The notes: a model not told the origin generated them from the sequence alone. A DNA stretch of 36,097 nt from a virus (IMGVR_UViG_2526164667_000029); one strand, 5' to 3'; shown: positions 190 through 36,097, numbered from the stretch's first letter. Numbers and translations are program-made.

Positions 190-606
190 TCATTCGCTCC
201 CCTCTTTTTCCTTATTTCGTTGAACGCCAATTGCGACACACGTACTAAGCAAATCTTTACATTTCTCTACGTCTTCAGACTTACGCAATTTGATGCTTTT
301 TACAGACTGCGGGCTACTGTCCGTAGCACGATACATCGTTATTTCAATATCATTTCGGTCTAAGAGTCCCATAATGGCTTTTGCAACCTCCACACCCTTC
401 TTCGCGAAATCAAAGAACAGAGCAAGTTTATATGGATTTTCGACGGAAAAAACTTCAATTTTGCTAAAACCAACATCGTGTAGAGAAAAATATTGCTCAA
501 CCTCATCTCGAAGTTCTGGATCGCATACAATGTCTATTCTCCAGTACTGACCTAAATGCAAATCGCTATTAACTGTTTTTTCCACAACATCCTCCTTACC
601 CAGCAA
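190..606 (-). CDS. Hypothetical protein (138 aa), AT-rich moron immediately downstream of integrase
   Basis: Six-frame ORF; its start overlaps the integrase stop by about 10 nt; visibly AT-richer than the phage backbone; no motif I recognise. Confidence 0.5.
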   Translation of the reverse strand: MLGKEDVVEKTVNSDLHLGQYWRIDIVCDPELRDEVEQYFSLHDVGFSKIEVFSVENPYKLALFFDFAKKGVEVAKAIMGLLDRNDIEITMYRATDSSPQSVKSIKLRKSEDVEKCKDLLSTCVAIGVQRNKEKEGSE

Positions 607-1570
607 TAGGATTAAATCTCACCGCATCCTGCAAGTAATCCGGCGCAAGATGGGCATAAATCATCGTTGTCTGAATCTTTGCGTGCCCCAGAATTTTCTG
701 GAGCGTCAGAATATTGCCGCCGTTCATCATGAAATGACTGGCGAAGGTGTGGCGCAGCGCATGAACAGCCTGGCCGTCAGGAACATCAGGTGCGACCGTT
801 TTGATGACATCGCGAACCAATGGATAATCCAGCGTCGGAAACACCAGTTTCCCGCCCCGTTTTTTGATCTTTTCAAACAGGCTTTCAGAAATAGGAACGG
901 TACGGTTTTTGCTGTTCTTCGTTTTTGAAAAAGTGATTCGACAATGAAGAACACGGCGCTGCTCCAGTGCCGCTACCTCGCCCCATCGCGCCCCGGTCGA
1001 CAGAAGGATTTCGACAGCCAGCCGTTCATCGGGATTTTCAGCCAGTGCATCCAGCAACTGAACACATTCAGACTTACTCAGATATCCCATTTCGCGCTCG
1101 TTAACCTTCATTCCTTTAAGGCCTTGAACGGGGTTATCGTTAAGAAAATGGCCGGATGAGATGAGTGCGGTAAACATCGCGCTTAACGCCCCAATCTCTC
1201 GATTAATGGTGCTGGGCTGTATCCCCTGCTCTATCCTGGACACACGTAGCTCGGTGAGCATCGTTGTATTAAGTTTATGCACACACGGGTCATCCATTGC
1301 CTCACTCAAGCGCAGCAATTTAAGGCGCGTGTTATGCCCTGACTTCATTAGCTGGCCGTGGTATTTCCACCACAAGTCAATAAGCACCGACAGCGGACGG
1401 CGATCAATGGAGTTTCCTTTCCACTCATTGTTATGCTGTTGCGCCAGCACCCACCGCTCATATAAAACTGCATCCGATTTCGTTTTAAATTTTTTGCGAA
1501 TGCGTTTGCCTTTACGCCCCTCAGGGCGCATGTCAAGAAGATACCCTCCCGGAATTGATTTTATGCTCAT
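596..1570 (-). CDS. int: Tyrosine site-specific integrase (P2 Int-like)
   Basis: C-terminal catalytic region HALRHTFASHF...GHAKIQTTMIYAHL typical of tyrosine recombinases; the ORF is open to 1720 but the likely start is the internal ATG (MSIKSIPGGY) at 1570. Confidence 0.9.
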   Translation of the reverse strand: MSIKSIPGGYLLDMRPEGRKGKRIRKKFKTKSDAVLYERWVLAQQHNNEWKGNSIDRRPLSVLIDLWWKYHGQLMKSGHNTRLKLLRLSEAMDDPCVHKLNTTMLTELRVSRIEQGIQPSTINREIGALSAMFTALISSGHFLNDNPVQGLKGMKVNEREMGYLSKSECVQLLDALAENPDERLAVEILLSTGARWGEVAALEQRRVLHCRITFSKTKNSKNRTVPISESLFEKIKKRGGKLVFPTLDYPLVRDVIKTVAPDVPDGQAVHALRHTFASHFMMNGGNILTLQKILGHAKIQTTMIYAHLAPDYLQDAVRFNPIAG

Positions 1571-1619
1571 TCGTGAAACCCCAGCGTTACAAGACCACCA
1601 TGCCCCCAGCGTTCCATGA

Positions 1620-1931
1620 TTAGCCGGGCTGTGTACCAGTCTTGCGGGATTTTTGAGAAGACGATGTGTTTTCTGGCCCATCAGGGGAGAGAGAGGGACT
1701 GATCTGCCCAGCAGCCTCATTTGTTTTTCCCGTCATAAGCCATATAGTGTATTTTTCGAAATCCTTAGAATTAATTACGCGATCAACAACGCTTAAACCA
1801 ACCTCTCTTTTACCGCTCTCATAATTCTTTACAGTTCCGAGATTTATCCCAGTAACATCTGCAAACTCAGCTTGAGTTAACCCTTCACTTTTCCGTATCT
1901 CTTTCAGTTTTTTTTCGTACCCACTTGACAT
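1620..1931 (-). CDS. C: Immunity repressor, P2 C-like HTH protein
   Basis: 103 aa; HTH segment LTQAEFADVTGINLGTVKNYESGKR and the YTIWLMTGKT motif resemble P2 C (remembered YTLWFMTNQ); divergent to the early operon. Confidence 0.75.
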   Translation of the reverse strand: MSSGYEKKLKEIRKSEGLTQAEFADVTGINLGTVKNYESGKREVGLSVVDRVINSKDFEKYTIWLMTGKTNEAAGQISPSLSPDGPENTSSSQKSRKTGTQPG

Positions 1932-3921: not shown

Positions 3922-4311
3922 ATGATTGACGCTCATGACTTCACAAGATGGGTGCGCACACAGGACACCCGTCTGGCTCCCATTCTTCGGGGATTATTTG
4001 ATCTCTACATTCGTGGTCGTGACAACAGAGCACGCACCACAAAACCGGAGAATGTGGATACCCTTTATTTCACAGTAGACGACTGCTACCGCGTGGACTT
4101 CACACCACACGGACTGGCGTTGCACTGCCTGACACCGCACGGCGAATCACTGCTGGCGTATTACGACTCCCCGGCCTCCGTATTTGCGGCAATGCTGGCG
4201 CATCGCACTGCTGGCGGGTGTGTCTCGCTGAGTGAATACACCGCTGAATTTAACCGCCTTTCCACCATCTTCTTGCAGGAGTGGCAGCGCGTGACGGGAT
4301 ACCAGCCATGA
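3922..4311 (+). CDS. Hypothetical early protein (129 aa), immediately upstream of A
   Basis: Six-frame ORF ending at the start of the replication gene. Confidence 0.5.
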   Translation: MIDAHDFTRWVRTQDTRLAPILRGLFDLYIRGRDNRARTTKPENVDTLYFTVDDCYRVDFTPHGLALHCLTPHGESLLAYYDSPASVFAAMLAHRTAGGCVSLSEYTAEFNRLSTIFLQEWQRVTGYQP

Positions 4312-7148
4312 GTGAGTTTGCATGGAGCTGGAATGAACCACGACCAGCCATTGATCCGGCCAGATTTACGGAGCACAGGCAGGAAACTGAAACCGACCTG
4401 CAACGCGCCATCCGTTACTACCTTGAGGCAGACAAAAAGGCCCTGGAAGAACAGGAAGCGAAGGAGGAAGCCTTTTTCGCACAATCCACCGTGGGTAAAA
4501 AACTCATGGCATCCCTTGAGGAAGCCGGACAGCGTGAAAAGCTGGCACAAAGCATCATCAGCAAGCGTCAGGCAACAGAACAAGACCCGGTGGCCCGTGC
4601 TTTTGCCACACTGAAAGTGCTTCCCGTTTATCTGCGTGAACCTCTGAGCCGCCACCTCTCTTTCCTGCGCAAAAAACAGGAATCCGATCGTCAGAAAGGC
4701 AAAAAGAGCTGGCAGGCTGAACGCTACGCGCGCGGAAACCTGCGCAAAATATTCGAACGCCTGGAACGCACCGATCACCGCTGGCTGACACCGGGTTATC
4801 GCTCCCTTACCGGACGCGAACGCCTGGACGATTTGCTTTACCTGCCGCAGCTCAACAAACACCAGATACAGACGCTGGCCACCATGACGGCGGCGATGTT
4901 CAGCAGCACCTTCGAAAAACTCTGCGATAGCTTTGGCGCGACTGATGGCGAGCTGACCATGGATGTAACGCTGAAGGCGTATCAGATGCTGGCCCGCATG
5001 GCGTTACACCTGCACGCCATGCCTCCACATTATGACGCACTGACAACAGACAAAGACCGGAGGAACGAACCGGACACGGAGCTGCTGCCGGGCGCAATCC
5101 TTCGCCTGACCTGTGCGGAATGGTGGAAACGCAAACTGTGGCTGTTACGTTGCGAGTGGCGGGAAGAACAACTCCGCGCCGCCTGTCTGGTTTCCAGAAA
5201 AACATCGCCCTATCTGAGTCAGGACGCATTAAGCGAGTTTCGCGCGCAGCGCGAGAAAACACGCGATTTCCTGAAAAGTTTCATGCTGGAAAACGAAGAC
5301 GGGTTCACGATTGATCTCGAGACAGTGTATTACGCGGGAGTAAGTAACCCGGTTCACCGTAAGGCAGAAATGATGGCCACCATGAAGGGGCTGGAACTTC
5401 TGGCCGAAGCCCGTGGCGACAGAGCGGTGTTTCTGACTGTCACCTGCCCGTCAAAATACCACGCCACAACAGAGAACGGTCATCCGAATCCCAAATGGAA
5501 CGGGGCCACCATGCGCGACTCCAGCGATTACCTGGTTAACACGTTTTTTGCGGCAGTCCGCAAAAAACTGAACCGCGACGGTCTGCGCTGGTATGGCATC
5601 CGCACGGTGGAGCCTCACCATGACGGCACCGTGCACTGGCATATGATGGTCTTTGCTCATCCGGAAGAAATCGACAGCATCGTGGCCATCACCCGCGATA
5701 TTGCCATTCAGGAAGACCGCCACGAGCTGGGCAATGATATTACTCCGCGCTTTAAGGTGGAGTATGTCGACGGCTCAAAAGGCACACCAACCAGCTATAT
5801 CGCGACCTACATCGGAAAAAACCTGGACAGCCGCGCCGTGGATGGCATCGACCCGAAAACGGGCAAGCCACGCGTTGACCACGAAACCGGAAAATCAATG
5901 GCCGAGAGCGTGGAACGCGCCATCGGCTGGGCGCGCCTTCACCGGGTTCGCCAGTTCCAGTTCTTTGGTATCCCCTCCCGTCAGGTGTGGCGTGAACTGC
6001 GCCGCCTTGCCAGCCAGATGGCACGCAACCCGGAAGGCCCGCAACGGCTGAAGGATGACGCAATGGATGCGGTACTCGCTGCCGCTGATGCCGGATGTTT
6101 TGCCACCTACATTGAAAAACAGGGTGGCGTGCTTGTTCCACGCAAGGACTACCTGATTCGCACCGCCTACGACCTCGCAGATGAGCTGAACGATTACGGC
6201 GAACAGAGCGTACAGATTTACGGGATCTGGTCACCACTCATCGGGGAATCCTCCCGTGTGTGCACGCATCCGGATAACTGGAAGCTGGTAAGACGTAAAC
6301 CAGAACCGGAAGACAACGCCCACGAAAATGGTTTTGACCTTCAGGGCGGCCCTGCCGCCTCTTGGACTCGTGGCAATAACTGTCCCCGTGTACAGGAAAC
6401 GGACAACAACGGGACAAAACAGCCGGAAGAACGGCCAGCACCGTGGCCGCAGCTCCCTGACGGCGTTGATGTGGATGAATGGATGCGCTCACTGAAACGG
6501 CACGAACGCCGGGCGCTGATGCGTTCGCTTCGTGACAAACAGGCAAAAAACAGCAGTGATGAAATGCAGAGCTGGACACAGAGCCGCAAACAGCAGCGGC
6601 CTTTGCCTGATAACCACGAATTACTCGCTAAAGAATGGCGGGAGTCTGCTGAATCTCTCGGCCTGCATATCGGTGAACAACAGATGCAGCACCTGTTACG
6701 GGGCGGCAGTCTGTACGTTGACGGCAGCATCATTGCACCGCAGGGATTTGAAATTGTACGCAAACCGGATACCCGCCCGGACAGCCGAATCACGCAGCTC
6801 TGGCAGCGCCTGAGCCGTAATCATGGCGTAAGCAGCACGGAGATCCGCCATAACCCGGTCGCCAGCTATCTGACACAGCTGGGGGCATCAGACCCTGAAG
6901 CCGCCGCACGCCTGGCATCCACACTTCAGCAGGACCAGAACACCATGAAAACACCCGTTACCGTGCTTTCTGACATGCTGCGCGCCATCCGCGACGCAGA
7001 GCACGCACAGAGAATCAGTGAAACCACTGAACGCGCCAGCCGCAAAGCAGACCTGCTGCGGGGTGGCCTGACCAGTGGAAACAAAAAACAGACAGAAACG
7101 GGACTCACGAATCCCGTAAATGAGCAAAAAACGCGCAGCGATATATGA
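4308..7148 (+). CDS. A: Rolling-circle replication initiator (P2 gpA-like HUH endonuclease)
   Basis: HUH-type motif VHWHMMVFAHPE and tyrosine pair in YIATYIGKN as in P2 gpA; ORF track starts at 4281, likely ATG at 4308 (MSEFAWSW); about 190 aa longer at the C-terminus than the P2 gpA length I remember (761 aa). Confidence 0.9.
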   Translation: MSEFAWSWNEPRPAIDPARFTEHRQETETDLQRAIRYYLEADKKALEEQEAKEEAFFAQSTVGKKLMASLEEAGQREKLAQSIISKRQATEQDPVARAFATLKVLPVYLREPLSRHLSFLRKKQESDRQKGKKSWQAERYARGNLRKIFERLERTDHRWLTPGYRSLTGRERLDDLLYLPQLNKHQIQTLATMTAAMFSSTFEKLCDSFGATDGELTMDVTLKAYQMLARMALHLHAMPPHYDALTTDKDRRNEPDTELLPGAILRLTCAEWWKRKLWLLRCEWREEQLRAACLVSRKTSPYLSQDALSEFRAQREKTRDFLKSFMLENEDGFTIDLETVYYAGVSNPVHRKAEMMATMKGLELLAEARGDRAVFLTVTCPSKYHATTENGHPNPKWNGATMRDSSDYLVNTFFAAVRKKLNRDGLRWYGIRTVEPHHDGTVHWHMMVFAHPEEIDSIVAITRDIAIQEDRHELGNDITPRFKVEYVDGSKGTPTSYIATYIGKNLDSRAVDGIDPKTGKPRVDHETGKSMAESVERAIGWARLHRVRQFQFFGIPSRQVWRELRRLASQMARNPEGPQRLKDDAMDAVLAAADAGCFATYIEKQGGVLVPRKDYLIRTAYDLADELNDYGEQSVQIYGIWSPLIGESSRVCTHPDNWKLVRRKPEPEDNAHENGFDLQGGPAASWTRGNNCPRVQETDNNGTKQPEERPAPWPQLPDGVDVDEWMRSLKRHERRALMRSLRDKQAKNSSDEMQSWTQSRKQQRPLPDNHELLAKEWRESAESLGLHIGEQQMQHLLRGGSLYVDGSIIAPQGFEIVRKPDTRPDSRITQLWQRLSRNHGVSSTEIRHNPVASYLTQLGASDPEAAARLASTLQQDQNTMKTPVTVLSDMLRAIRDAEHAQRISETTERASRKADLLRGGLTSGNKKQTETGLTNPVNEQKTRSDI

Positions 7149-7196
7149 AGCGCGCACAAAACAGGCAAAAACGGGATTTCAGAATCCCGTAAACGA
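7081..7196. repeat. Two imperfect ~40-bp direct repeats, each with an ACGGGA-N8-TCCCGT inverted repeat; candidate parC centromere/operator
   Basis: Copies at about 7081-7123 and 7155-7196, roughly 32 of 40 positions identical, directly upstream of parM; the first copy overlaps the 3' end of A. Confidence 0.4.
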
Positions 7197-7224
7197 TTAA
7201 TTAATCAACATAAGGAAAAGCGAC

Positions 7225-8184
7225 ATGAAAATTTGTATCGACGACGGCTCCACCAACATCAAGCTGGCATGGACTGAGAACGGCGAACGCCGCAACGCCA
7301 TCAGCCCGAACAGCTTCAAGTCGGAATGGTCTGCGCCGTTCGGTGGCACGCAGCCCGCGAACTACATGCTTGATGGCGTGCGCTATGGTTTTGATCCGGT
7401 CAGCGATCGCTTTGTCCAGACGACCGACACGCAATACCAATACAGCGATGTGAATGTCATTGCCATTCATCACGCGCTGGTCAAATCAGGCATCACACCA
7501 CAGGAGGTGGATGTGGTTGTCACCCTGCCACTGAGCGAGTATTTCGACACAAACGCACAGCCGGACATAGCCAACATCAACCGCAAAAAAGCGAACGTTA
7601 TGCGCCCGGTGGAGTACCAGAACGGCGAAGCATTCACTATCCGTAACGTGCGGGTTATGCCTGAATCCATTCCGGCTGGCTTTAAGGCACTGGCTGACAT
7701 GAGTCCGTTTGAATCCCTGCTGATTGTGGATTTGGGCGGAACCACGCTGGATGTGGCAAAGGTTCAGGGGCAACTGGCAGGTATCAGCCAGGTGTTTTGC
7801 GATCCACACGTAGGCGTTTCTCTGATGGCCGATGCCGTACTGGCGGTGATGGCCACTAACGGTATGCGCACCAGTCACCACATCGCCAATACCATTATCG
7901 AACATCGCCATGATGAAGCCTGGCTGCGCCAGCACATCCACAATGACGCGCATTACGCCAGCCTGATGGCGGTTATTCGTGAAAAGGAAGAAACACTGAA
8001 ACAACGCGTGATCCGCGCGCTGGCGGTTTTTTCGGGTTACGGGCGGGTGATGGTTGTCGGTGGAGGGGCGGAGATTGTGGCACCCGCTATCCGCGAAGCC
8101 TGCGGAGTTAATGCGACTTTCATCGCGGACGGGGTGCCACAGTTTGCTCTGGTTAATGGGCTGTACGCAATGGACAAGGAGTAA
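7225..8184 (+). CDS. parM: ParM actin-like segregation ATPase (type II partition)
   Basis: N-terminus MKICIDDGSTNIKLAW plus ISPNSFK, YSDVNVIAIHHAL and C-terminal LVNGLYAM closely parallel plasmid R1 ParM (remembered MLVFIDDGSTNIKLQW...). Confidence 0.85.
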   Translation: MKICIDDGSTNIKLAWTENGERRNAISPNSFKSEWSAPFGGTQPANYMLDGVRYGFDPVSDRFVQTTDTQYQYSDVNVIAIHHALVKSGITPQEVDVVVTLPLSEYFDTNAQPDIANINRKKANVMRPVEYQNGEAFTIRNVRVMPESIPAGFKALADMSPFESLLIVDLGGTTLDVAKVQGQLAGISQVFCDPHVGVSLMADAVLAVMATNGMRTSHHIANTIIEHRHDEAWLRQHIHNDAHYASLMAVIREKEETLKQRVIRALAVFSGYGRVMVVGGGAEIVAPAIREACGVNATFIADGVPQFALVNGLYAMDKE

Positions 8185-8188
8185 ACCA

Positions 8189-8500
8189 ATGACGACACCA
8201 ACCAGACGGATAAGTTTCTATCTGAAGCCTGCGGCCGTCAAGAACGAAAGCGAAGCATGCGCCTGGCTGGACAGCCTTACACCAGAAGCCCGCAAAAGCG
8301 GCCAACGCGTGGCTTTTCTGGCCGGGCTGGCACTTCTGAAAATGAATCCAGCAGAGGCTTACCGACTGGCTGCATGGGCTGACGATGAGGCGTTATCAGT
8401 GACACAAACCAGGACAGAATGCCCCGCGTCACAGCCAGTATCAACCGCACAGATAACCAGTCAGATGGCCGGAAATATCCGGGCATTATTTCCCGAATAA
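8189..8500 (+). CDS. parR: ParR centromere-binding adaptor
   Basis: Starts right after the parM stop with aggag upstream; RISFYLKP, AFLAGLALL and C-terminal IRALFPE resemble R1 ParR; the ORF track entry 8054-8500 extends upstream in a frame overlapping parM, so the internal ATG at 8189 is preferred. Confidence 0.6.
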   Translation: MTTPTRRISFYLKPAAVKNESEACAWLDSLTPEARKSGQRVAFLAGLALLKMNPAEAYRLAAWADDEALSVTQTRTECPASQPVSTAQITSQMAGNIRALFPE

Positions 8501-8573
8501 CACAACATCAGGGCGCATCCGCCCTGATGACTTTAATCCGGGAACATAAACAAGGGGGACAAAATGCAACACA

Positions 8574-8816
8574 TTGACAGAGAAAAAGGAAAAAAGCATG
8601 AACAGAAAACAGAAACAAGAGTTGAAATACTTCTTACGTAAAGAAATTGCCAGGCTTGAAGATGCAGAGTCACAATCATCAGAAATTCCGTTCGGAATGG
8701 ATATCAACGACGCCCGTATGCTTCAGGCATACCGTATAGCTCAGGCTGCACTACAGACAAAACCGTTAAATAACATACATGAAAAGTATGATTATTTTAC
8801 GGATACCGCTTGCTGA
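8574..8816 (+). CDS. Hypothetical small protein (about 72-80 aa) in the tin/old-position hotspot
   Basis: Six-frame ORF, AT-rich; alternative start MNRKQKQE at about 8598. Confidence 0.35.
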   Translation: MTEKKEKSMNRKQKQELKYFLRKEIARLEDAESQSSEIPFGMDINDARMLQAYRIAQAALQTKPLNNIHEKYDYFTDTAC

Positions 8817-9001
8817 CATCTGAAGAACAAAAGATAGCCCAACTTTTAGGCGACGCATGGAACCTGTATTTAACATTGCCAGTTGAGCATCCAATGGGTA
8901 GAGATGAATTTTGCCGGGCAATTCATCATTGCCAAAATATGATGTTGGCACGCCCGGCCATCAGGACGCTGGCCAGGAAGGGGCAAGGCTATAAAAGATA
9001 A
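8810..9001 (+). CDS. Hypothetical small protein (63 aa) in the tin/old-position hotspot
   Basis: Six-frame ORF with a non-ATG start, overlapping the previous ORF's end; could be a separate gene or a frameshifted continuation. Confidence 0.3.
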   Translation: MLTSEEQKIAQLLGDAWNLYLTLPVEHPMGRDEFCRAIHHCQNMMLARPAIRTLARKGQGYKR

Positions 9002-9486: not shown

Positions 9487-10518
9487 TCAGGATGTGGGCT
9501 GGGTATCTAACAGTGCGTAAGGGTTAAAGCGGATCACCTCTTCGCCAAGCCAGTCATTGATGTGCTTCATGGCCTCCATGACGGGCATCAGCTCGTTAAT
9601 TGCGTAAACCCGCGCGGCCTTCTCCACATCACCAAACGCACTTTTTTCACCCGGCATCGCCCCCATCAGTTGCGGCGGAACGCGGTGCGCAGCCAGCACA
9701 TCATCACGGGATGCCGCCTTAACATTCATGAACTCATCCTTTGCGGTGATCTGCTGGAACGGCAAAATTTGCACCCCCTCTTTGCCCCCGTTGGGCGCAT
9801 GAATGAGCACGTTTTTAAACGCACCGCCACCACGTGCACCCTGTAGCGTTTCTTTCAGGGAGTCCATGCTTTCGCGGTTTACCTGCGCTGCACCGATGTA
9901 GATGATGCACCCGGCGTGGGATCCGTTGTCGTAATACAGTTTTCTGAACATGTCCGCCGAATGAGACAGGCTGGCCGAGAGTAATGCGCCGAGATATTCC
10001 GGCATGCCGTAGATTTCCTGGTTAATGTCAGGATTCATCAGGTGGCACACTTTGCCAGGGCGAAACTGGAACGCATCCTTGCCATCCTGCACATACCACC
10101 ATGATTCAAGATCGCTACCGCGTCGCATGTATTTCGCCAGGGCGTGCCGTAATTTAAGCGGTTCGCCGAGCATATTGCTTCGAAGCTCAAGGAATGCGTT
10201 ACCGAACACAAACCAGTCCAGCGCCAGCGCCGAGAAATCCTGCCGGGAAAGCAGCGGGTGCGGGATGTAGCAACCGAGTAATACATTGCGCTTAAAGTAA
10301 AGCGCAGACTGATGCCAGGACGTTTGCCGGGCAGCTCTTGCCAGACCGTACCAGTCCACCGGGGTTTCATACCACCGCCCGTTATCAGCACAGTACATAT
10401 TGTCCAGCAGGTCATGCCCGGTCAGGCGATAAGGACCATCAACCACCAGGAACAGCCGGAGGAACCACCACGGACACAGCGCCGCTGTCGCCGTTGCCAC
10501 TGCTGCCGTTTGCGTCAT
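9487..10518 (-). CDS. Q: Portal protein (P2 gpQ-like)
   Basis: 343 aa from the ATG at 10518 (ORF open to 10608); conserved blocks RWYETPV..GLARA, VLAAHRVPPQLMG and NDWLGEEVIRF resemble P2 gpQ as I remember it. Confidence 0.85.
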   Translation of the reverse strand: MTQTAAVATATAALCPWWFLRLFLVVDGPYRLTGHDLLDNMYCADNGRWYETPVDWYGLARAARQTSWHQSALYFKRNVLLGCYIPHPLLSRQDFSALALDWFVFGNAFLELRSNMLGEPLKLRHALAKYMRRGSDLESWWYVQDGKDAFQFRPGKVCHLMNPDINQEIYGMPEYLGALLSASLSHSADMFRKLYYDNGSHAGCIIYIGAAQVNRESMDSLKETLQGARGGGAFKNVLIHAPNGGKEGVQILPFQQITAKDEFMNVKAASRDDVLAAHRVPPQLMGAMPGEKSAFGDVEKAARVYAINELMPVMEAMKHINDWLGEEVIRFNPYALLDTQPTS

Positions 10519-11737
10519 ACCCAATCCATACCGGACGATTCCCCATCGGGCGGGGAGCAAAAGGTTTCCAGTCTTTCCAGTCGTCGTATCCGTCAACGCC
10601 ACAGCCAATCAGGATATTCAGGTTAAATGCCGATTCCCCTTCGCGGACAAACTCACACATATAGAGATTGAGGAACTCGTCTTCGGTGTTTTCATCACGA
10701 ATTTCATCAATATCGGTGTGTTTCCAGCCGTGATTAACCACATCTTCCAGCGTGACAATTTGCCGCCACGTCCGGTCAGGGCAGATAAGCCCGTTATGCA
10801 GCGTTTTCCAGTCCACAGAAAAACGCTGGCGTTTATGCGAGGCCTTTTTCTCGTTCCAGCGGTCGCCGTTCCAGTAGGCGTATGCCTCGTGCGTTTCGGT
10901 GGATGGCGTGGAGAAGTAGGTGCGCCGCAGTCCGCTGAGGGTTGCCATAGCGCCAGCCACCTTGCGCAGTTCAGCAAAGCGACTGACCCAGAAAAATTCA
11001 TCAAAATAAAAATTGCCCGTATAGGACTGTGCCGACGCAGCAGAAGTGCCGAGAAAATGCAGCTCTGCGCCGTTGGAGAGGATGATTTTATCGCCCCCTT
11101 TCAGCTCCACATCAACTTCAGCCGCGGCCTTCTGAATAATGCTTTTAAACTGGAACGCCTGACGACGCGACGCAGACAAAAAAATCTGGTTACGCTGGTA
11201 AGGTTGCGCCACATCGTCACGCAGCGCCATCAGCAGTGCTTCCTGTGCAAAATACCAGGTCGCCCCAATCTGTCGGGATTTCAGGATCATCCTGTTACGT
11301 ATCCCGGCTTCCCTGCAAAGGGTCAGGGAGTCAAACCAGCTCCGCTGATGCCACTCCAGCCTGCTGATGATTTTTTCCCGCAGTGCGGCAATCTGTTCCG
11401 GCGTGAAATGATTTTTGAGTTTTTTCGCCCGGCCTTTCTTTCCTGCGGCCATCACATCCGGCTGGCCATCATGCAGCTTTTTAAGCTGCCGTGTCAGCAG
11501 GTCTATTTCCTTAAAGTCACCGCCTGTTTTATTCTGTTTTTCAGTAAGCTGGATGAGGCGCGCATCGATGGACTGCGTGACACGCTGCACGGGTGGCGTT
11601 TCATCCCACTGGTCGCGTTTTTTCCACGCATAAATCGTGTTCGGGTTTATTCCCATCAGACGTGATATTTCTGCGGGCGGATAACCCTGCCAGTAAAGTT
11701 GCCGCGCACGCTGGCGCACAAAAGCGTCCTGAATCAT
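10439..11737 (-). CDS. P: Terminase large (ATPase) subunit, P2 gpP-like, apparently C-terminally truncated
   Basis: 432 aa with N-terminal HTH-like region, Walker A-like ILKSRQIGATWYF and Walker B-like NFYFDEFFW; ORF ends right after a nuclease-domain-like start VWIGYDANGSSGNGDSGAVSVVVPP and overlaps Q by about 80 nt. Confidence 0.8.
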   Translation of the reverse strand: MIQDAFVRQRARQLYWQGYPPAEISRLMGINPNTIYAWKKRDQWDETPPVQRVTQSIDARLIQLTEKQNKTGGDFKEIDLLTRQLKKLHDGQPDVMAAGKKGRAKKLKNHFTPEQIAALREKIISRLEWHQRSWFDSLTLCREAGIRNRMILKSRQIGATWYFAQEALLMALRDDVAQPYQRNQIFLSASRRQAFQFKSIIQKAAAEVDVELKGGDKIILSNGAELHFLGTSAASAQSYTGNFYFDEFFWVSRFAELRKVAGAMATLSGLRRTYFSTPSTETHEAYAYWNGDRWNEKKASHKRQRFSVDWKTLHNGLICPDRTWRQIVTLEDVVNHGWKHTDIDEIRDENTEDEFLNLYMCEFVREGESAFNLNILIGCGVDGYDDWKDWKPFAPRPMGNRPVWIGYDANGSSGNGDSGAVSVVVPPAVPGG

Positions 11738-22281: not shown

Positions 22282-22859
22282 TGACATTCAGAATGAGTGA
22301 ACAATCACGGACCATAAAAATTTATAATCTACTGACCGGAACCAATGAGTTTATTGGTGAAGGTGATGCATACATTCCACCTCATACAGGTCTGCCTGCA
22401 AACAGTACCGATATTGCCCCGCCAGATATTCCGGCTGGCTTCGTGGCCGTTTTCAACAGTGATGAGGCATCGTGGCATCTCGTTGAAGACCATCGGGGTA
22501 AAACGGTTTATGACGTGGCATCAGGGGACTCGTTATTTATTTCTGAACTCGGTCCGTTACCGGAAAATGTTACCTGGTTGTCGCCGTATGGAGAGTATCA
22601 GAAGTGGAACGGCACATCCTGGGTGAAAGATGCAGAAGCAGACAAACTATTTCGGATAAGGGAGGCGGAAGAAACAAAAAACAGCCTGATGCAGGTAGCC
22701 AGTGAGCATATTGCACCACTTCAGGATGCTATAGATTTAGATATTGCGACGGAGGAAGAGACATCGTTACTGGCTGCATGGAAGACATATCGAGTATTGT
22801 TGCATCGTGTTGATACAACAGTAGCAGCAGATATTGAGTGGCCAGTCGCCCCACAATAA
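22281..22859 (+). CDS. G: Tail fiber assembly chaperone (gpG/Tfa-like)
   Basis: 192 aa directly after H, start overlapping the H stop. Confidence 0.8.
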
Positions 22860-29631: not shown

Positions 29632-30852
29632 TGTAGATTCAATCTGTCAATGCAACACCCCTTTCAATTATCTCTTTCGGTGTTTTGAACTTCAGTGTCT
29701 TTCTCGGTCTGTTGTTTAGCTGAGCAGCAACCAGATCTAGTTCATGTTGAGTATATTGGGCAAGACATGTCTTTTTAGGAAAGTACTGCCGAATTAGCCC
29801 ATTTGTGTTCTCATTTGTTCCCCGCTGCCAAGGACTCTGAGGATCGCAGAAGTAAACTTTAACGCCGGTGCTGACAGTAAATTCTAGATGTCTGGCCAGT
29901 TCCATTCCTCTGTCCCATGTCAGTGATTTTCTGAGTTCTGACGGTAAACTCAGGAATTTGTCGGTAAGAGCCTGATTTACTGAGACAGAATCTTTGCCCC
30001 TGAGTCTGAGGATGATCGTATAACGTGATTTTCGGTCTACAAGTGTGGCTATATGAGAGTTTTTTGTACCTGAGACTAAATCGCCCTCCCAATGCCCCAG
30101 AGAGCGTCTGTTATCGATATTTCGGGAACGTTCGTGAATTGGTGTTCCGTTCACTATGTTAATCGTACCTCTTTCGCCTTTGCGGGTATGACGCCTGCCA
30201 TGGCGAAGGCTATGCGACCGTCGCAGATGCTGTATATTCAGGTGGTGTAGCGCTTCACGGCTACGAAAGTACAGCGTTTTATAAATTGTCTCAGGTGATA
30301 TTCGCAGCGTTTTTTGACGTGGTTTTGTTCGCCTTAACCATCCTGATATTTGCTCTGGAGACCATTTCATCTCCAGCTTTTCCAGAACAAGCTTTCGCAA
30401 TGGTAAATTTTGATCCAGTAAGCACGGTTTTGGCCTTTTCGCCATTCTGTTGGCTCGGTTATTAGCATCAACAGCTTTGTAATAGCGTCTGCCCCGATTA
30501 CGCTGAACTTCACGTGAGATCGTCGAAGGACTGCGATTCAGCGCAGTAGCTATCGCACGAATGCTCATTTTGGCTGACAAACCAGCTCGTATCTCCTCGC
30601 GCTCAGACAGTGTCAGGTGAGCTACAGCCCGCTTACGCTCATGGGGTTTTATGCCGCCAGTATCCCTTAACATAGTGAAGATCGTTCCGGGTTTTGAACC
30701 CAGGATATTCGCTATTTCACTGAAGCCTGTTCCGTTCTTCCATAGTTCAAAAACAGAGGCTTTTTCCTCTGCTGTAAATGTTCGTCTCATTCAAAAAACC
30801 TCCGCAACCCCATGTTTTCACATAACTGTTGCGTTGACCAATTGAATCTACA
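29632..30852 (-). mobile_element. IS30 insertion sequence (complete, about 1221 bp)
   Basis: Terminal inverted repeats TGTAGATTCAAT..GTCAA.GCAAC at both ends; 2-bp flanking direct repeat CT; one 383-aa transposase ORF. Confidence 0.9.
29639..30790 (-). CDS. insI: IS30 transposase
   Basis: 383 aa with N-terminal HTH and a DDE-type catalytic core; fills nearly the whole element. Confidence 0.9.
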   Translation of the reverse strand: MRRTFTAEEKASVFELWKNGTGFSEIANILGSKPGTIFTMLRDTGGIKPHERKRAVAHLTLSEREEIRAGLSAKMSIRAIATALNRSPSTISREVQRNRGRRYYKAVDANNRANRMAKRPKPCLLDQNLPLRKLVLEKLEMKWSPEQISGWLRRTKPRQKTLRISPETIYKTLYFRSREALHHLNIQHLRRSHSLRHGRRHTRKGERGTINIVNGTPIHERSRNIDNRRSLGHWEGDLVSGTKNSHIATLVDRKSRYTIILRLRGKDSVSVNQALTDKFLSLPSELRKSLTWDRGMELARHLEFTVSTGVKVYFCDPQSPWQRGTNENTNGLIRQYFPKKTCLAQYTQHELDLVAAQLNNRPRKTLKFKTPKEIIERGVALTD

Positions 30853-31855
30853 CTTACATTGTTGATGAAATCGCTCACGAAGGACCGCCGGACAGGCTGA
30901 CTGTTTCAGCCAGAAGCGCAGATTTTCGGGATGAATTTAACGTTAAACGTGAGGTGTCCTGGCATGATGTGACCGTTGAGCGTGTGGTATCCGCCATCGC
31001 TCATCGGTATGGTCTGAAACCGCAAATCAGCGAAATGCTGATGGATATCGAAATCGACCACGCCGACCAGACCGAAGAAAGCGACATGTCCTTCCTTACG
31101 CGCATGGCGGAAATGCTGGGCGCAATCACCACAGTAAAAAGCGGCAATCTGTTATTCATCATGCCAGGTGGTGGCGTGAACGCACAGGGCCAGCCGTTGC
31201 CCTCGTTCGCCATTACACGCAGCAGCGGCGATCGCCATCAGTTCCGTATTGCTGACCGCGAGGCGTATACGGGGGTACGCGCCTACTGGCTTGATCTTAA
31301 TTACGGGAAAAAGAAAAAAGTCAGCGTGAAACGCCGTAAACCGCCAAAACCCAAAAAGGAGAAAAGCAGCAGCCGTGAAGGTGATTATATGGAAGGCGCG
31401 GAAGGCAATGTGTTTGTGTTACGCAAGACTTATCAGAACGAGCAGGCAGCAAGACGCGCAGCGGCGGCAAAGTGGCAGCAGCTACAACGCGGAGCCGCAG
31501 CGTTCTCCATCACACTGGCACGTGGACGCGCAGAACTCTACCCCGAAATGCATGGCACGGTAACAGGCTTTAAAAGCGAGATTGATAATCAGGACTGGAT
31601 TATTGCGAAAGCCGAGCACACCATTGATAACAGCGGCTTTACCACGCAGCTTGAGCTTGAGGCAAAAATCCCGGAATGGATAGCAGAATGAGACTCTTAA
31701 ATGTATTAGTCCAGACACGTACTAGCGGGCTAAACGGCACAGTCTTATCTGACCATCTGCCCCTAACACAGAGCAGACGGTCCTTGATCTTACCCACTAA
31801 TAATGGACGCGCGACTAATATAATTTATTGCTTTTTATTTATACCTCACTGAGAT

Positions 31856-32491
31856 TTAGCGAGCTAATATATTCAAAGAATTTAACAATTGAGTGTCGAG
31901 TGTTTCAGTTGCAGGAATCGGTAATCCATTCGCAATGCGGTAATTTTTCACAGACAGCCTTGTGGATGGCCCCATTATGCCGTCAATATTTCCGTTATAA
32001 AATCCCCTGTCCAGCAATGCGAACTGAACTCGCATAATCAATCGCTTACGTTTCTCTGCATCAGAAGCAAGCCCATTACTCGTACGGTTAACCTCTGAAG
32101 TTCCAACAGAACTCGTGTTAGTGGTTCTATTATTATCGTTAGAACGAAGTGCACGCACCGAGGAAGAGGACGATGAGGAACTTGCACCTGAACTTGAAGA
32201 ACCAGATGAACGTGGTGAGCTGTATGTTTTTGGATAATAGGGGGTACTTCCACCATAGTATCCACCACCTGATGAGGATCTATGAGAGCTATGGCTCCTA
32301 TGAGAGCTATGGCTTCGATGCCCTGCGATATAAAATGGGACTTCCGTGTTAAGTGGAGCTATCACTAAATCATGCTCATTAAGAGTCATACCAGGTAAAT
32401 CACTCGCTCCTGTAGATGAATCGCTTGCCCATACAGAATTGTTGAGAGCCAAAAATCCCGGAAGTAGAGCAGCAAAATTAAACTTTTTCAT
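31856..32491 (-). CDS. hxsA: His-Xaa-Ser repeat protein (HxsA-like): signal peptide, HxS repeats, Ser-rich linker, peptidoglycan-binding-like C-terminus
   Basis: Signal peptide MKKFNFAALLPGFLALNNSVWA; repeat HRSHSSHRSHSSHRS; Ser-rich tract; C-terminal RVQFALLDRGFYNGNIDGIMGPSTRLSVKNYRIANGLP resembles a PG_binding_1 domain; start overlaps the stop of the upstream rSAM gene (ATGA); ORF track extends to 32569 in the same frame. Confidence 0.7.
   Translation of the reverse strand: MKKFNFAALLPGFLALNNSVWASDSSTGASDLPGMTLNEHDLVIAPLNTEVPFYIAGHRSHSSHRSHSSHRSSSGGGYYGGSTPYYPKTYSSPRSSGSSSSGASSSSSSSSVRALRSNDNNRTTNTSSVGTSEVNRTSNGLASDAEKRKRLIMRVQFALLDRGFYNGNIDGIMGPSTRLSVKNYRIANGLPIPATETLDTQLLNSLNILAR
32276..32320 (-). 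repeat. 18-bp tandem DNA repeats encoding the His-Xaa-Ser repeats of HxsA
   Basis: Plus-strand ctatgagagctatggct repeated about 2.5 times. Confidence 0.6.
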
Positions 32492-33600
32492 AAAATTGGT
32501 CTCGGTGATTGATGAAAACGGCCTTTTGAGGAACTGAAATAGCCAGCACAGGAAGGCTTCTGAGTACATTCATCACATTCTTTTGGATAGTAATTTTTCC
32601 AATCAGAGATCGACTGAACAGCAAGCTCCCTAGCCCTTTCAGGAAGATAACACAAAGGATAATTAAAAATTGTCAGAGGTATGCCTGACCTGTATGCAGC
32701 GTCTATGGCAGAGATTATTTTCTCACTATAACTACTGTGATCAATGAAGATGGTGGACCAGTTTTTTCGTGCCCAACCGATAGGCTCCAACCCCATAAGG
32801 GAAATCTGATTGATGTTGGAGAACACACGGCCAGCGAATTCTACAATATCATCCAATTCGGTATAGTTAGCCAGTGTAGGAATAACTCTAAGTTCGATAT
32901 TAATCCCCAAGTTTCCTGCATTGATTAACCCTTTAACCGTTTCATTAAATGCGCCATCACTCCCTACCAGATGATCATGCACAAGTGGTCTTGATGAGTA
33001 GAGCGGGATACCAAAGGTGATTTTGATCTTTTTGCTTCGCTTTGCCATTTCCTGTGTAAAGTTGATATCAGCAAATTTGCGTCCGTTTGTTAAAACATGT
33101 AAAGCAGTATCTGGTGAATTCTCGATGATAAAATCAATGAAGTGAAGGAAGTCATCCCCATATAGCAAAGGTTCACCACCGCTGACCCCAACAACTCCGT
33201 TCAAGCCAAATGAAGCTATAGCAAGAGCTGATTGGGTAAGTAGCCAGTCATCATTTATTTTCTTTGGTGGCTGCGAACAAAACAGACACAAGTTATTGCA
33301 GCGTTCCGTAACTAAGACAGTATTATGATTGGCTTTGCGTGACAGAATAACGCGTATCATATTGCCATTGTTGATTATCCCAATATCTCCATCTTCAATT
33401 GACTCAAATAATTCAGTGCTAATAACAGAGAAATCAAAGCATGGTGGAATGGCATCATTATTGCCTTCAGCAACTACTAGCAAATTGGGCAAAAAGAATA
33501 AAGGGTTCACTGGTTTTTGTTTGCATAACCGATAGAACCCCGTGGGCACGTTCTCTGTAGAAGCAAAATGAAAGATATCGTTCCTGATAACCTCAGACAT
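32488..33600 (-). CDS. Radical SAM maturase with C-terminal Cys-rich (SPASM/twitch-like) region, HxsB/HxsC-type
   Basis: 370 aa; CxxxCxxC motif CNNLCLFC; GGEP motif VSGGEPLL; C-terminal cysteines in CYLPERARE...CDECTQKPSCAGYF; 8-nt overlap with the upstream gene. Confidence 0.75.
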   Translation of the reverse strand: MSEVIRNDIFHFASTENVPTGFYRLCKQKPVNPLFFLPNLLVVAEGNNDAIPPCFDFSVISTELFESIEDGDIGIINNGNMIRVILSRKANHNTVLVTERCNNLCLFCSQPPKKINDDWLLTQSALAIASFGLNGVVGVSGGEPLLYGDDFLHFIDFIIENSPDTALHVLTNGRKFADINFTQEMAKRSKKIKITFGIPLYSSRPLVHDHLVGSDGAFNETVKGLINAGNLGINIELRVIPTLANYTELDDIVEFAGRVFSNINQISLMGLEPIGWARKNWSTIFIDHSSYSEKIISAIDAAYRSGIPLTIFNYPLCYLPERARELAVQSISDWKNYYPKECDECTQKPSCAGYFSSSKGRFHQSPRPIL

Positions 33601-34981
33601 ATGCCCATCCTTTTAGCATCTCAGCCTTCGAACCACCCTCTGAGATGCAGTTCATCAGATACCTGAACATCCCCTTGTGATATTGACAAAACGTTGAACG
33701 ACTCCTATCACCGACAGGCTCACCCTGTACACTTATGTTCTGGCATGGATCTGAACCACAAAATGGTTGATATGCACATGTATCACAACCTGGCAGAGCA
33801 AAATTGAACGATGAACTCAATACTGCGTTATAGTAAGGACTATCAGAAAATGATAGCGTCTTAACTTCACCCGCACTGAACTCCGTTTCAGGATTCACCT
33901 TCTGCAACATACGGCTCTCATCGCTACCATATACTCGACCGTCATAATTGAAAAGAATACTGTTAAGCACGACTCCACTTGGAGACTTTAAATCCGCATA
34001 ACCACTAAAACCGGGATTGAAGATCCTTTTCAGATGAATGGAGGCCGAATGTTCCACAACCCTTATCCCTTCATTATTAATCTTAAGGATTTCATCTATC
34101 AACGAGGCATAGAAGCTGAAGTATTCGTCCATAGAAAAGGTGAAAGAAGCTTTTTGTGCAAACCCATAGGGACTAACAGGTCGGATAAACATGTCCTTGA
34201 GACCAAGAGACAAGTGAGCCTGAACAATCGATTCAGGACGTTTGATAAGCTCTTTAGTAACTGTAGTAACCGTTGCAACGCGGCCAGCACCTAAAGAGTG
34301 TTTGATAGCCTCTACCCCTGACACTGTTCTACTGTACGCAAGCCCACGACCAAGAATTCGATTACTGTTGTGAACAACTTCCTCACCATCAAGCGACACA
34401 GAGAACGTTATGTTCCGGTCTCTCGACCATTCAATCATATCCTCATTCAAGACGGACAGACTTGATGCCACCACCATCTCAAAATTGGTTCTTCCCAGCG
34501 TTTCAGCACATTGATCATAGATGCTCTGAATTAAATCAAACCGCAAGAGAGGCTCCCCACCCTGTATCTCTATTTTGTAAGGTGGCGTTGATAGTTTTTT
34601 AATAGCCGAAATAATATCGGGGATGAGCTCAGGATTTAGGTCGTAACCTGAGGCATTAACAGAAGCTCTACTAACCTGGCAATACTTGCATGTATGGTCA
34701 CAACGTAATGTGGGTACAATCATGAAAATTGGCCTGACAGCCAGTTCATTCATCAATCGTTTTGCAAAAGCAGAACTTAAAGCATAGGGAGTTATAGCAG
34801 ATGAGCTTTCACTGGTTATGAAAAGCTTACTTTCTAGCACGTTTGATTGCTCCGAACTAATTCGCTCATCAGAAAGATCAATAAGGTCTTGCTCACCAAT
34901 GAAATGATGAAAACCTGCAAGGTTGCTTATAAACACCTGTCCATTAGGCAATCTGTCAAAATTAAATGGCATCAATTCCAT
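33593..34981 (-). CDS. Radical SAM maturase with N-terminal extension and C-terminal Cys-rich region, HxsB/HxsC-type
   Basis: 462 aa; CxxxCxxC motif CDHTCKYC; GGEP motif IQGGEPLL; C-terminal cluster PGCDTCAYQPFCGSDPC; start overlaps the hxsD stop (TAATG). Confidence 0.75.
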   Translation of the reverse strand: MELMPFNFDRLPNGQVFISNLAGFHHFIGEQDLIDLSDERISSEQSNVLESKLFITSESSSAITPYALSSAFAKRLMNELAVRPIFMIVPTLRCDHTCKYCQVSRASVNASGYDLNPELIPDIISAIKKLSTPPYKIEIQGGEPLLRFDLIQSIYDQCAETLGRTNFEMVVASSLSVLNEDMIEWSRDRNITFSVSLDGEEVVHNSNRILGRGLAYSRTVSGVEAIKHSLGAGRVATVTTVTKELIKRPESIVQAHLSLGLKDMFIRPVSPYGFAQKASFTFSMDEYFSFYASLIDEILKINNEGIRVVEHSASIHLKRIFNPGFSGYADLKSPSGVVLNSILFNYDGRVYGSDESRMLQKVNPETEFSAGEVKTLSFSDSPYYNAVLSSSFNFALPGCDTCAYQPFCGSDPCQNISVQGEPVGDRSRSTFCQYHKGMFRYLMNCISEGGSKAEMLKGWAYV

Positions 34982-35956: not shown

Positions 35957-36097
35957 ATGTCGCAAAAATCGCTTACGGCCATCACGTTCTGCGTGACGGC
36001 AATCCTCATCATCTGGATGTTGCACGGTTCGCTGTGCGAAATACGGATGAGCTTCTGGGGAGCGGAGTTTGCGGCGTTCTTACAGTGTAAGCAGTAA
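35957..36097 (+). CDS. Hok/Gef-family type I toxin (small membrane peptide)
   Basis: 46-aa translation MSQKSLTAITFCVTAILIIWMLHGSLCEIRMSFWGAEFAAFLQCKQ with the Hok signature SLCE(I/L)...E(L/V)AAF; an overlapping ORF at 35857-36090 may be mok-like; ends at the last base of the window. Confidence 0.65.
   Translation: MSQKSLTAITFCVTAILIIWMLHGSLCEIRMSFWGAEFAAFLQCKQ

Follow-up and report, generated by a model that had tools for sequence, protein, structure and literature searches.

A ParMRC-type partition cassette in P88-like prophages of Escherichia coli

Introduction

The prototype of the type II partition systems is ParMRC of plasmids R1 and NR1 (also known as parA or stb), in which a cis-acting site is followed by parM and then by parR. 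The R1 site, parC, consists of two clusters of five 11-bp direct iterons (ten altogether) that flank the promoter. We have analyzed a locus with the same order in a viral sequence, IMGVR_UViG_2526164667_000029, a stretch of 36,097 nucleotides (from here on, the window, meaning the whole of it) that holds a P2-like prophage of Escherichia coli. Its parM and parR genes are located at 7225 to 8184 and at 8189 to 8500, respectively, both on the plus strand. The R1 locus belongs to a plasmid, whereas the host replicon of this cassette is an integrating phage. Two comparable systems have been described on integrated elements. The first is srpMRC of the SXT/R391 integrative and conjugative elements (ICEs), which stabilizes a partition-defective plasmid and matters at the low copy number of the excised form, and whose adaptor binds to repeats that precede the ATPase gene (Carraro et al. 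2015, PMC4489591). Like the phage cassette, it is a ParM-type system on a normally integrated element, and by analogy it would be the best functional counterpart for a role in a transient episome. However, SrpR has no recognizable similarity to ParR, its host is a conjugative element and not a phage, and srpMRC is co-transcribed with int, whereas the phage cassette follows the replication gene A. The second is AlpAC/alpS of the CGP3 prophage of Corynebacterium glutamicum, where, as in the P2-like phage, an integrated prophage codes for an actin-like filament former and an adaptor. AlpAC ties the circular CGP3 DNA to actin-like filaments and is required for its efficient replication; the adaptor binds sites in the upstream region of its own operon, which is turned on soon after excision (Donovan et al. 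2015, PMC4446434). In contrast to the phage cassette, AlpC is a distant actin-like protein from a Gram-positive host, and AlpAC is not a ParM/StbB pair. These two precedents indicate that a ParM-type arrangement on an integrating element can be functional.

The cassette itself is already known. In the near-identical locus of an O26 E. coli genome, RefSeq labels the two genes "plasmid segregation protein ParM" and "plasmid partitioning/stability family protein," both products match PHROG families of the "partition protein" category (phrog_691 and phrog_2515), and about a quarter of the P2-like phages have been reported to carry a putative partition system (Rousset et al. 2022, PMC9122126). Given the annotation and the published mention, the novelty of the locus is low. 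A preliminary description of this DNA had considered a type II segregation system unexpected in a chromosomally integrating phage, which seems overstated in view of these records, of its presence in about one in four E. coli genomes, and of the srpMRC and AlpAC precedents. The question of interest is why an integrating phage retains a complete partition cassette under strong purifying selection. The answer would bear on the circular products of P2-type replication, on the establishment of lysogeny, and on the boundary between prophages, phage-plasmids, and ICEs.

Results and Discussion

The host prophage and its partition genes

We consider this locus a bona fide ParMRC-type (type II) cassette, a module fixed in the lineage of the P88-like and related temperate phages of the P2 family that would act on episomal circles, and we give this reading a probability of about 0.6. 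The window is a P88-like prophage (Xuanwuvirus, Peduoviridae), with 97 to 98% identity to P88 over most of the genome and the same synteny (int, C, cox, ..., A, parM, parR, cargo, Q, P, O, N). The parMR module is 98% identical to that of P88 and of some twelve further P88-like phages with known sequence, among them Citrobacter phiSM. An integrase gene is present at 596 to 1720 (minus strand), and the flanks of the prophage, read from the near-identical locus of E. coli O26:H11 strain 11368, are btuC on the left and ihfA on the right. Leaving aside two rearrangements, the window is collinear with the prophage of that strain, at 99.5 to 99.9% identity at both ends and ca. 97% in the middle. The element is a chromosomally integrated P2-like prophage in an O26-like E. 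coli chromosome. Directly upstream of the cassette is gene A (4281 to 7148, plus strand), coding for a P2 GpA-type replication endonuclease of 955 residues (Pfam Phage_GPA, E value 2.8e-130); RefSeq annotates it as a "replication endonuclease" in the O26 locus, with a start equivalent to position 4308 of the window. Only 76 nt separate the stop of gene A from the start of parM. The preliminary description had proposed an R1-like ParM and a ParR-like adaptor in an integrating P2-like prophage, downstream of A, where P2 carries tin and old, and preceded by two direct repeats of ca. 40 bp, each with an ACGGGA-N8-TCCCGT palindrome. All of these points held. The integrase, the flanking genes, and the P88 synteny confirm the type of element, the location corresponds to the A-to-Q interval (PMC9122126), the repeats were recovered as 42-nt copies, and the hidden Markov model search that had been suggested as a check identified both proteins.

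The product of parM has 319 residues, and both of its Pfam matches, StbA_N (E value 3.5e-82) and the ParM C-terminal domain (1e-68), exceed the curated cut-offs. Residues 2 to 316 align end to end with R1 ParM (PDB 1mwk; E value 1.5e-92, ca. 50% identity). The phosphate-1 (DDGSTNIK, residues 6 to 13), catalytic-glutamate (MPESIPAG, 145 to 152), phosphate-2 (DLGGTTLD, 169 to 176), and adenosine (GGGAE, 279 to 283) motifs are all retained, and the glutamate of the PES triplet aligns with the catalytic E148 of R1 ParM. The actin-fold ATPase that characterizes type II (ParMRC) systems is therefore present, with its nucleotide-binding and hydrolysis motifs intact.

The adaptor is a more divergent protein. 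ParR has 103 residues, counted from an ATG at 8189 that we identified in the sequence itself, and matches PF10784 (Plasmid_stab_B) at an E value of 1.7e-24, exceeding the curated cut-off. Direct phmmer comparison of ParR against the PDB gave zero matches. With profiles, the only solved structure retrieved was the ParR (StbB) of pB171 (2jd3), the top match of a profile made of phage ParRs only (E value 0.0016) and of a wider alignment (3.9e-14); the match covers the N-terminal DNA-binding region, and the sequence similarity between the two proteins is low. ParR has an N-terminal TRRISFYLKP strand (residues 5 to 14), followed by helices and a C-terminal NIRALFPE motif. Among 24 phage ParRs, residues N96, I97, F101, and P102 do not vary, and the C-terminal N-x-x-x-L/F-F-P motif is conserved in all of them and aligns to the C terminus of R1 ParR. 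Specifically, N96 and L100 align with the KNAMKL stretch of R1 ParR, which itself matches PF10784 at 2.7e-30; the peptide by which R1 ParR binds ParM is at this C-terminal end. The R1 and phage adaptors thus share the PF10784 family, the N-terminal strand, and the C-terminal N-x-x-x-L motif, but the phage protein is shorter, as it lacks ca. 25 residues after the helical core. In the genes that it contains, in their order, and in the protein families to which they belong, the locus conforms to the ParMRC type.

At least four mosaic alleles of ParR were found in E. coli (8189 to 8500 in the window and loci L003 to L092). Residues 18 to 95 are only ca. 52 to 57% identical between allele groups, residues 1 to 17 are nearly invariant, and the C-terminal N-I-x-x-(L/F)-F-P is retained. 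Next to these alleles, ParM is 98 to 99% identical and the upstream sites are unchanged. There appears to be a recombination breakpoint near codon 18 of parR.

Paired palindromes upstream of parM

A single family of direct repeats precedes parM, with two 42-nt copies that are 81% identical and located 73 nt apart. The first copy (7082 to 7123) is within the 3' end of gene A and contains the palindrome ACGGGACTCACGAATCCCGT (7098 to 7117). The second (7155 to 7196) is intergenic and contains ACGGGATTTCAGAATCCCGT (7171 to 7190), with 8-bp arms and a 4-nt center, at -54 from the parM ATG. Instead of the ten iterons of R1 parC, the phage has two palindromes of 20 bp at a distance of 73 bp, the first of which is part of the coding sequence of gene A. 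In the 36-kb window, exact matches to ACGGGA-N8-TCCCGT are confined to these two positions. With up to two mismatches allowed, about one occurrence is expected by chance, so the raw count at that threshold is uninformative, and what makes the pair significant is its exactness and its location. In the E. coli-clade loci from which both sites were recovered, they are fixed at -127 and -54 (occasionally -126 or -53), and the CGGGA/TCCCG arms are less polymorphic than the 8-nt centers and the flanks.

The geometry reaches beyond E. coli. In Hafnia there are two GGG-N10-CCC sites at -128 and -55 (73 nt apart), and in Plesiomonas at -131 and -59 (72 nt apart, with the first also inside gene A); their ParR strands read TRRVSFYLKP and TRRISFYLNP, respectively. 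The two-site layout, in which the second site is at -52 to -59, has been kept in these phages even though their ParMs are just 62 to 63% identical to that of the window and the sequence of the sites has diverged. For the window (with the 220 nt that precede parM), Hafnia, and Plesiomonas, sets of 20,000 dinucleotide shuffles were made, and a GGG-N10-CCC pair 71 to 73 nt apart was found in none. P2-like phages of Serratia and Enterobacter (L089 and L090, both at 5880 to 5960, and L095 to L097) have a different putative centromere, made of two 20-nt inverted arms (GGGAACGAxATAGAAAAAT ... ATTTTTCTxTTTCGTTCCC) ca. 30 nt apart, and their ParR strand is NRKISFYLKP. Finally, plasmid and ICE loci, with a strand of the RRKIxFY type, have R1-style clusters of TATCTC iterons. 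The palindrome pair accompanies the TRR(I/V)SFYL strand, and across clades the type of site tracks the N-terminal strand of ParR. Since the repeats are directly upstream of parM in every case and their type shifts with the ParR strand, the pattern fits a co-evolving pair of adaptor and centromere. This comparison involves a handful of loci; the scan of genome contigs gave just three near-identical loci, and searches of viral contigs for divergent loci gave almost nothing with the Hafnia and Plesiomonas ParMs and were dominated by E. coli-type loci with the Serratia query.

From these sequence comparisons, the repeats are most probably ParR sites with a centromere function and probably act as an operator as well. 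Site 2 is followed by an AT-rich box, ATTAATTAATCAAC (7196 to 7209, plus strand), which is invariant in 63 distinct upstream sequences and whose core, ATTAATCAA, is found also in the Hafnia and Plesiomonas loci. We consider it a candidate -10 region of a parM promoter. A scan for consensus promoters called none between gene A and parM, and Rfam and tRNA scans returned nothing relevant within or near the module.

A proposed role on episomal circles

The prophage is integrated and its lysogenic copy segregates with the chromosome, so the natural substrate of the cassette should be the extrachromosomal circular genome of the phage, either after infection and before integration, after excision, or during A-dependent replication. 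In P2-type phages, the nick made by A starts a rolling-circle replication that yields monomeric, plasmid-like circles. The most likely role of the cassette would be to handle these circles during the transient episomal phases. In the mechanism that we envisage, ParR dimers would bind the two palindromes, which at 73 bp are separated by about seven helical turns, and the C-terminal tail of ParR would capture the ends of ATP-driven ParM filaments, which in turn would separate the ParR-bound circles or position them in the cell. The cassette is located at the end of the presumed early replication operon (A-parM-parR). As there is no plus-strand terminator-like site between A and parM, it is probably read together with that operon, although a promoter of its own, under the control of ParR, might exist besides the read-through from A. 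With site 2 beside the candidate -10 box, ParR probably autoregulates parMR too. More speculatively, and here we are inclined to doubt, the cassette might be a DNA-positioning machine essential for fitness, in which two sites at the end of the replication gene make a minimal centromere and ParM spreads or anchors the replication circles or carries the genome through cell divisions before integration. If that were the case, a functional actin-like cytoskeleton would be present in a quarter of E. coli strains and active only during the episomal phases of a phage, and the cassette would be the first type II partition system with a demonstrated role in the life of a chromosomally integrating phage of Gram-negative bacteria.

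Several points weigh against the assignment of a partition function on episomal circles. We found no functional study of the cassette in this phage family in the literature. The presumed ribbon-helix-helix fold of ParR comes from sequence homology, as the AlphaFold (AF2) model of the monomer, obtained with a 24-sequence alignment, was too poor to confirm it (predicted local distance difference test [pLDDT] of 56.7, with residues 1 to 17 unmodelled, helices at 20 to 61, and a C-terminal helix at 86 to 100). With only two sites, a full ring or helix of ParR may not form. Neither a sigma-70 promoter nor a plus-strand terminator was called around the sites, which makes the timing of expression a guess. 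This copy of the prophage is decayed and probably packaging-defective (see below), and hence its intact parMR may have no current substrate. Lastly, both palindromes score as terminator-like on the minus strand, with an 8-bp stem, a 4-nt loop, and a T-rich tail.

This last point opens an improbable alternative, in which the palindromes are RNA or DNA hairpins, acting either as tandem minus-strand terminators against antisense transcription from the hotspot or in processing and stability of the plus-strand mRNA, and the true centromere is elsewhere or absent. The predicted folds, modest at -9 to -11.5 kcal/mol and with z-scores between -1.4 and -2.3, are compatible with it, and the A-rich tract 5' of each palindrome, which would provide the T-tail on the minus strand, is invariant. 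However, in Hafnia and Plesiomonas the arms have only 3 to 4 complementary base pairs (GGG/CCC) around a 10-nt center, not enough to form a stable hairpin or a terminator, and yet position and spacing (71 to 73 bp) have been retained. The changes observed in the arms of E. coli are single-sided transitions that would give wobble pairs and that affect different strands at different sites, and no compensatory double changes were found among the E. coli-clade loci. Moreover, the >2 kb upstream of the sites contain no minus-strand gene, a much stronger hairpin is already present after parR, and the type of site varies with the ParR strand across clades. A two-site geometry that recurs with diverged sequence favors a ParR centromere or operator over an RNA hairpin.

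Prevalence and conservation of the cassette

The 1.7-kb module is present in 1375 of 5426 complete E. coli genomes. The parM open reading frame (ORF) is intact, with 319 codons and at the same position, in all 85 related loci. Compared with the copy in the window, the ratio of nonsynonymous to synonymous substitution rates (dN/dS) is 0.11 for parM and 0.355 for the last 299 codons of gene A, and parM is under strong purifying selection. What follows is far more plastic. From the end of parR to the portal gene there are 987 to 4168 nt, depending on the locus, and the cargo of the window is found in only 6 of 58 loci. Immediately after parR there is a GC-rich hairpin with a 10-bp stem (8506 to 8529), a likely terminator. 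Because the segment from parR to the portal gene varies and parMR is constant, the hotspot starts past this hairpin, and parMR is its constant left border. The preliminary description had offered three options for the module, namely an extrachromosomal phase, a regulatory or exclusion role, or plain hotspot cargo. Its intact presence at one position in 85 of 85 loci, the variation downstream, and the low dN/dS argue against the last of these. The first cargo gene after parR (8598 to 9001) codes for a hypothetical protein of 135 residues in O26:H11 11368 and is frameshifted here into ORFs of 72 and 63 residues, of which the second matches phrog_13916, labelled "DNA ligase."

The same arrangement is found in more distant phages. 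In four further P2-like lineages, from Hafnia, Plesiomonas, Serratia, and Enterobacter, genes coding for ParMs with 54 to 63% identity are followed by a PF10784 gene, with Phage_GPA on one side of the two and the portal and terminase genes on the other. In these lineages, ParM is better conserved than gpA (31 to 56%) or the portal protein (31 to 52%). On the other hand, the inspected ParMs at or below ca. 53% identity were in plasmid-like or conjugative contexts (with Rep3 or TraG/TraU) or in other nonphage contexts. In a neighbor-joining tree, the phage-borne ParMs group together, apart from those of plasmids, ICEs, and R1. These sequences indicate that one sub-lineage of the P2-like phages has had the cassette for a long time and has kept it under selection.

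These data bear on two other explanations. One is that a cassette captured from a plasmid persists as a relic without function. This particular copy of the prophage is indeed decaying (deletion of portal and terminase sequence, insertion of a mobile element, frameshifted cargo gene), and there are clusters of truncated ParMs in the protein database (P0006, P0010, and P0017). Nevertheless, we find a relic hard to credit, given the dN/dS of parM, the ORFs intact in every locus, and a position shared by lineages whose gpA and portal proteins are only ca. 31 to 56% identical. The GC content of parM and parR (55%) is also in line with that of gene A (57%) and not with that of the cargo (47%). The other is a function on the side of the lysogen, by which ParR and ParM would exclude or destabilize incoming plasmids or phages with a related centromere, or would act as an unrecognized defense. 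The cassette borders a known P2 defense hotspot, and the candidate promoter with its overlapping operator would permit expression in the lysogen. But the cassette is constant, whereas true hotspot cargo turns over, and the complete cis-plus-trans architecture of a partition locus has been retained. Furthermore, this type of ParR is essentially limited to these prophages (with tblastn, only prophage-bearing records of PLSDB were retrieved), so there would be few plasmids to interfere with. We regard such a function as quite improbable, though less so than a relic. A known or candidate defense system of the A-to-Q hotspot was rejected, as no PADLOC model matched ParM, ParR, or the two downstream ORFs and the cassette is not variable cargo.

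Integrated prophage or plasmid

A more serious competitor, although still an unlikely one, is stable plasmid lysogeny. Here the cassette and a hok/gef gene would maintain the prophage for many generations as a low-copy circular plasmid, as an alternative to integration. Plasmid maintenance was suggested in passing by Rousset et al. (2022; PMC9122126), and one complete circular P88-like genome of 34,461 bp, with int, parMR, hok, and com/methyltransferase genes, has been deposited as a plasmid. The record (PLSDB NZ_CP148288.1; L002 and L177) is plasmid pZ1323PEC0009-2 of an E. coli isolate from a cat. There is also the precedent of D6, a plasmid prophage. This 91-kb P1-like record was the sole other phage in our collection with a ParM homolog (47.8% identity), and its annotation describes the homolog as a plasmid stability protein of the StbA type. 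As prophages, P1-like phages persist in the form of plasmids; P88-like phages, in contrast, integrate.

The Hok/Gef-family toxin gene is at the right end of the prophage (35957 to 36097), and its stop codon is where the window ends. Essentially this Hok (at least 97.8% identity) is found in P88, P884B11, PhiR44_2, Chuche, and phiSM, all of which have parMR, and also in 500465-2. The phage thus holds homologs of both stability loci of R1, parMRC and hok/sok. On the other hand, Hok homologs (74% identical) are also common in integrating Shiga toxin (Stx) phages.

The genomic record points to integration. A phage-plasmid is an autonomous replicon in its lysogens, whereas 1544 of the 1546 occurrences of the module in complete E. 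coli genomes are chromosomal, and the copy in the window lies between btuC and ihfA, beside its integrase. An integrase gene accompanies the module in the window, in P88, in the Plesiomonas locus, and even in the circular record, which could equally be an excised replicative form captured in the assembly. Among the phage-sized P2-like "plasmids" of E. coli in PLSDB, a single record is P88-like; the others come from different P2-like lineages (capsid identities of ca. 41 to 43%), and therefore episomes are not enriched for the cassette. Stable plasmid lysogeny is possible as an occasional state but unlikely as the main reason for the cassette, and a role in the transient episomal phases of an integrating phage remains our preferred reading.

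Other features of this prophage copy

Compared with both the O26:H11 11368 prophage and P88, the window has a deletion of ca. 547 bp (junction at 10442/10443, within 10439 to 10608), by which the portal gene has lost its 5' end and the large terminase gene its 3' end. What is left of the terminase, an ORF at 10439 to 11737 (minus strand), has the Terminase_5 and Terminase_6N matches and lacks the Terminase_6C nuclease domain. This copy of the prophage is probably packaging-defective. A 1.2-kb insertion (29633 to 30850), not found in O26:H11 11368 or P88, interrupts the region of the tail gene D. It codes on the minus strand for a transposase of 383 residues (HTH_38 and rve domains) and is presumably an IS30-like element. 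Between the truncated gene D and ogr (ca. 31200 to 34600) there is an hxsABCD cargo, coding for a His-Xaa-Ser repeat protein and radical-SAM maturases, which was placed by collinearity with L093 (33194 to 36591) and the RefSeq annotation of the near-identical O26 locus. Finally, the tail fiber region contains a match to the Rfam family IS009 (RF02111) at 22624 to 22822 (plus strand), with a score of 173 bits (gathering score, 117).

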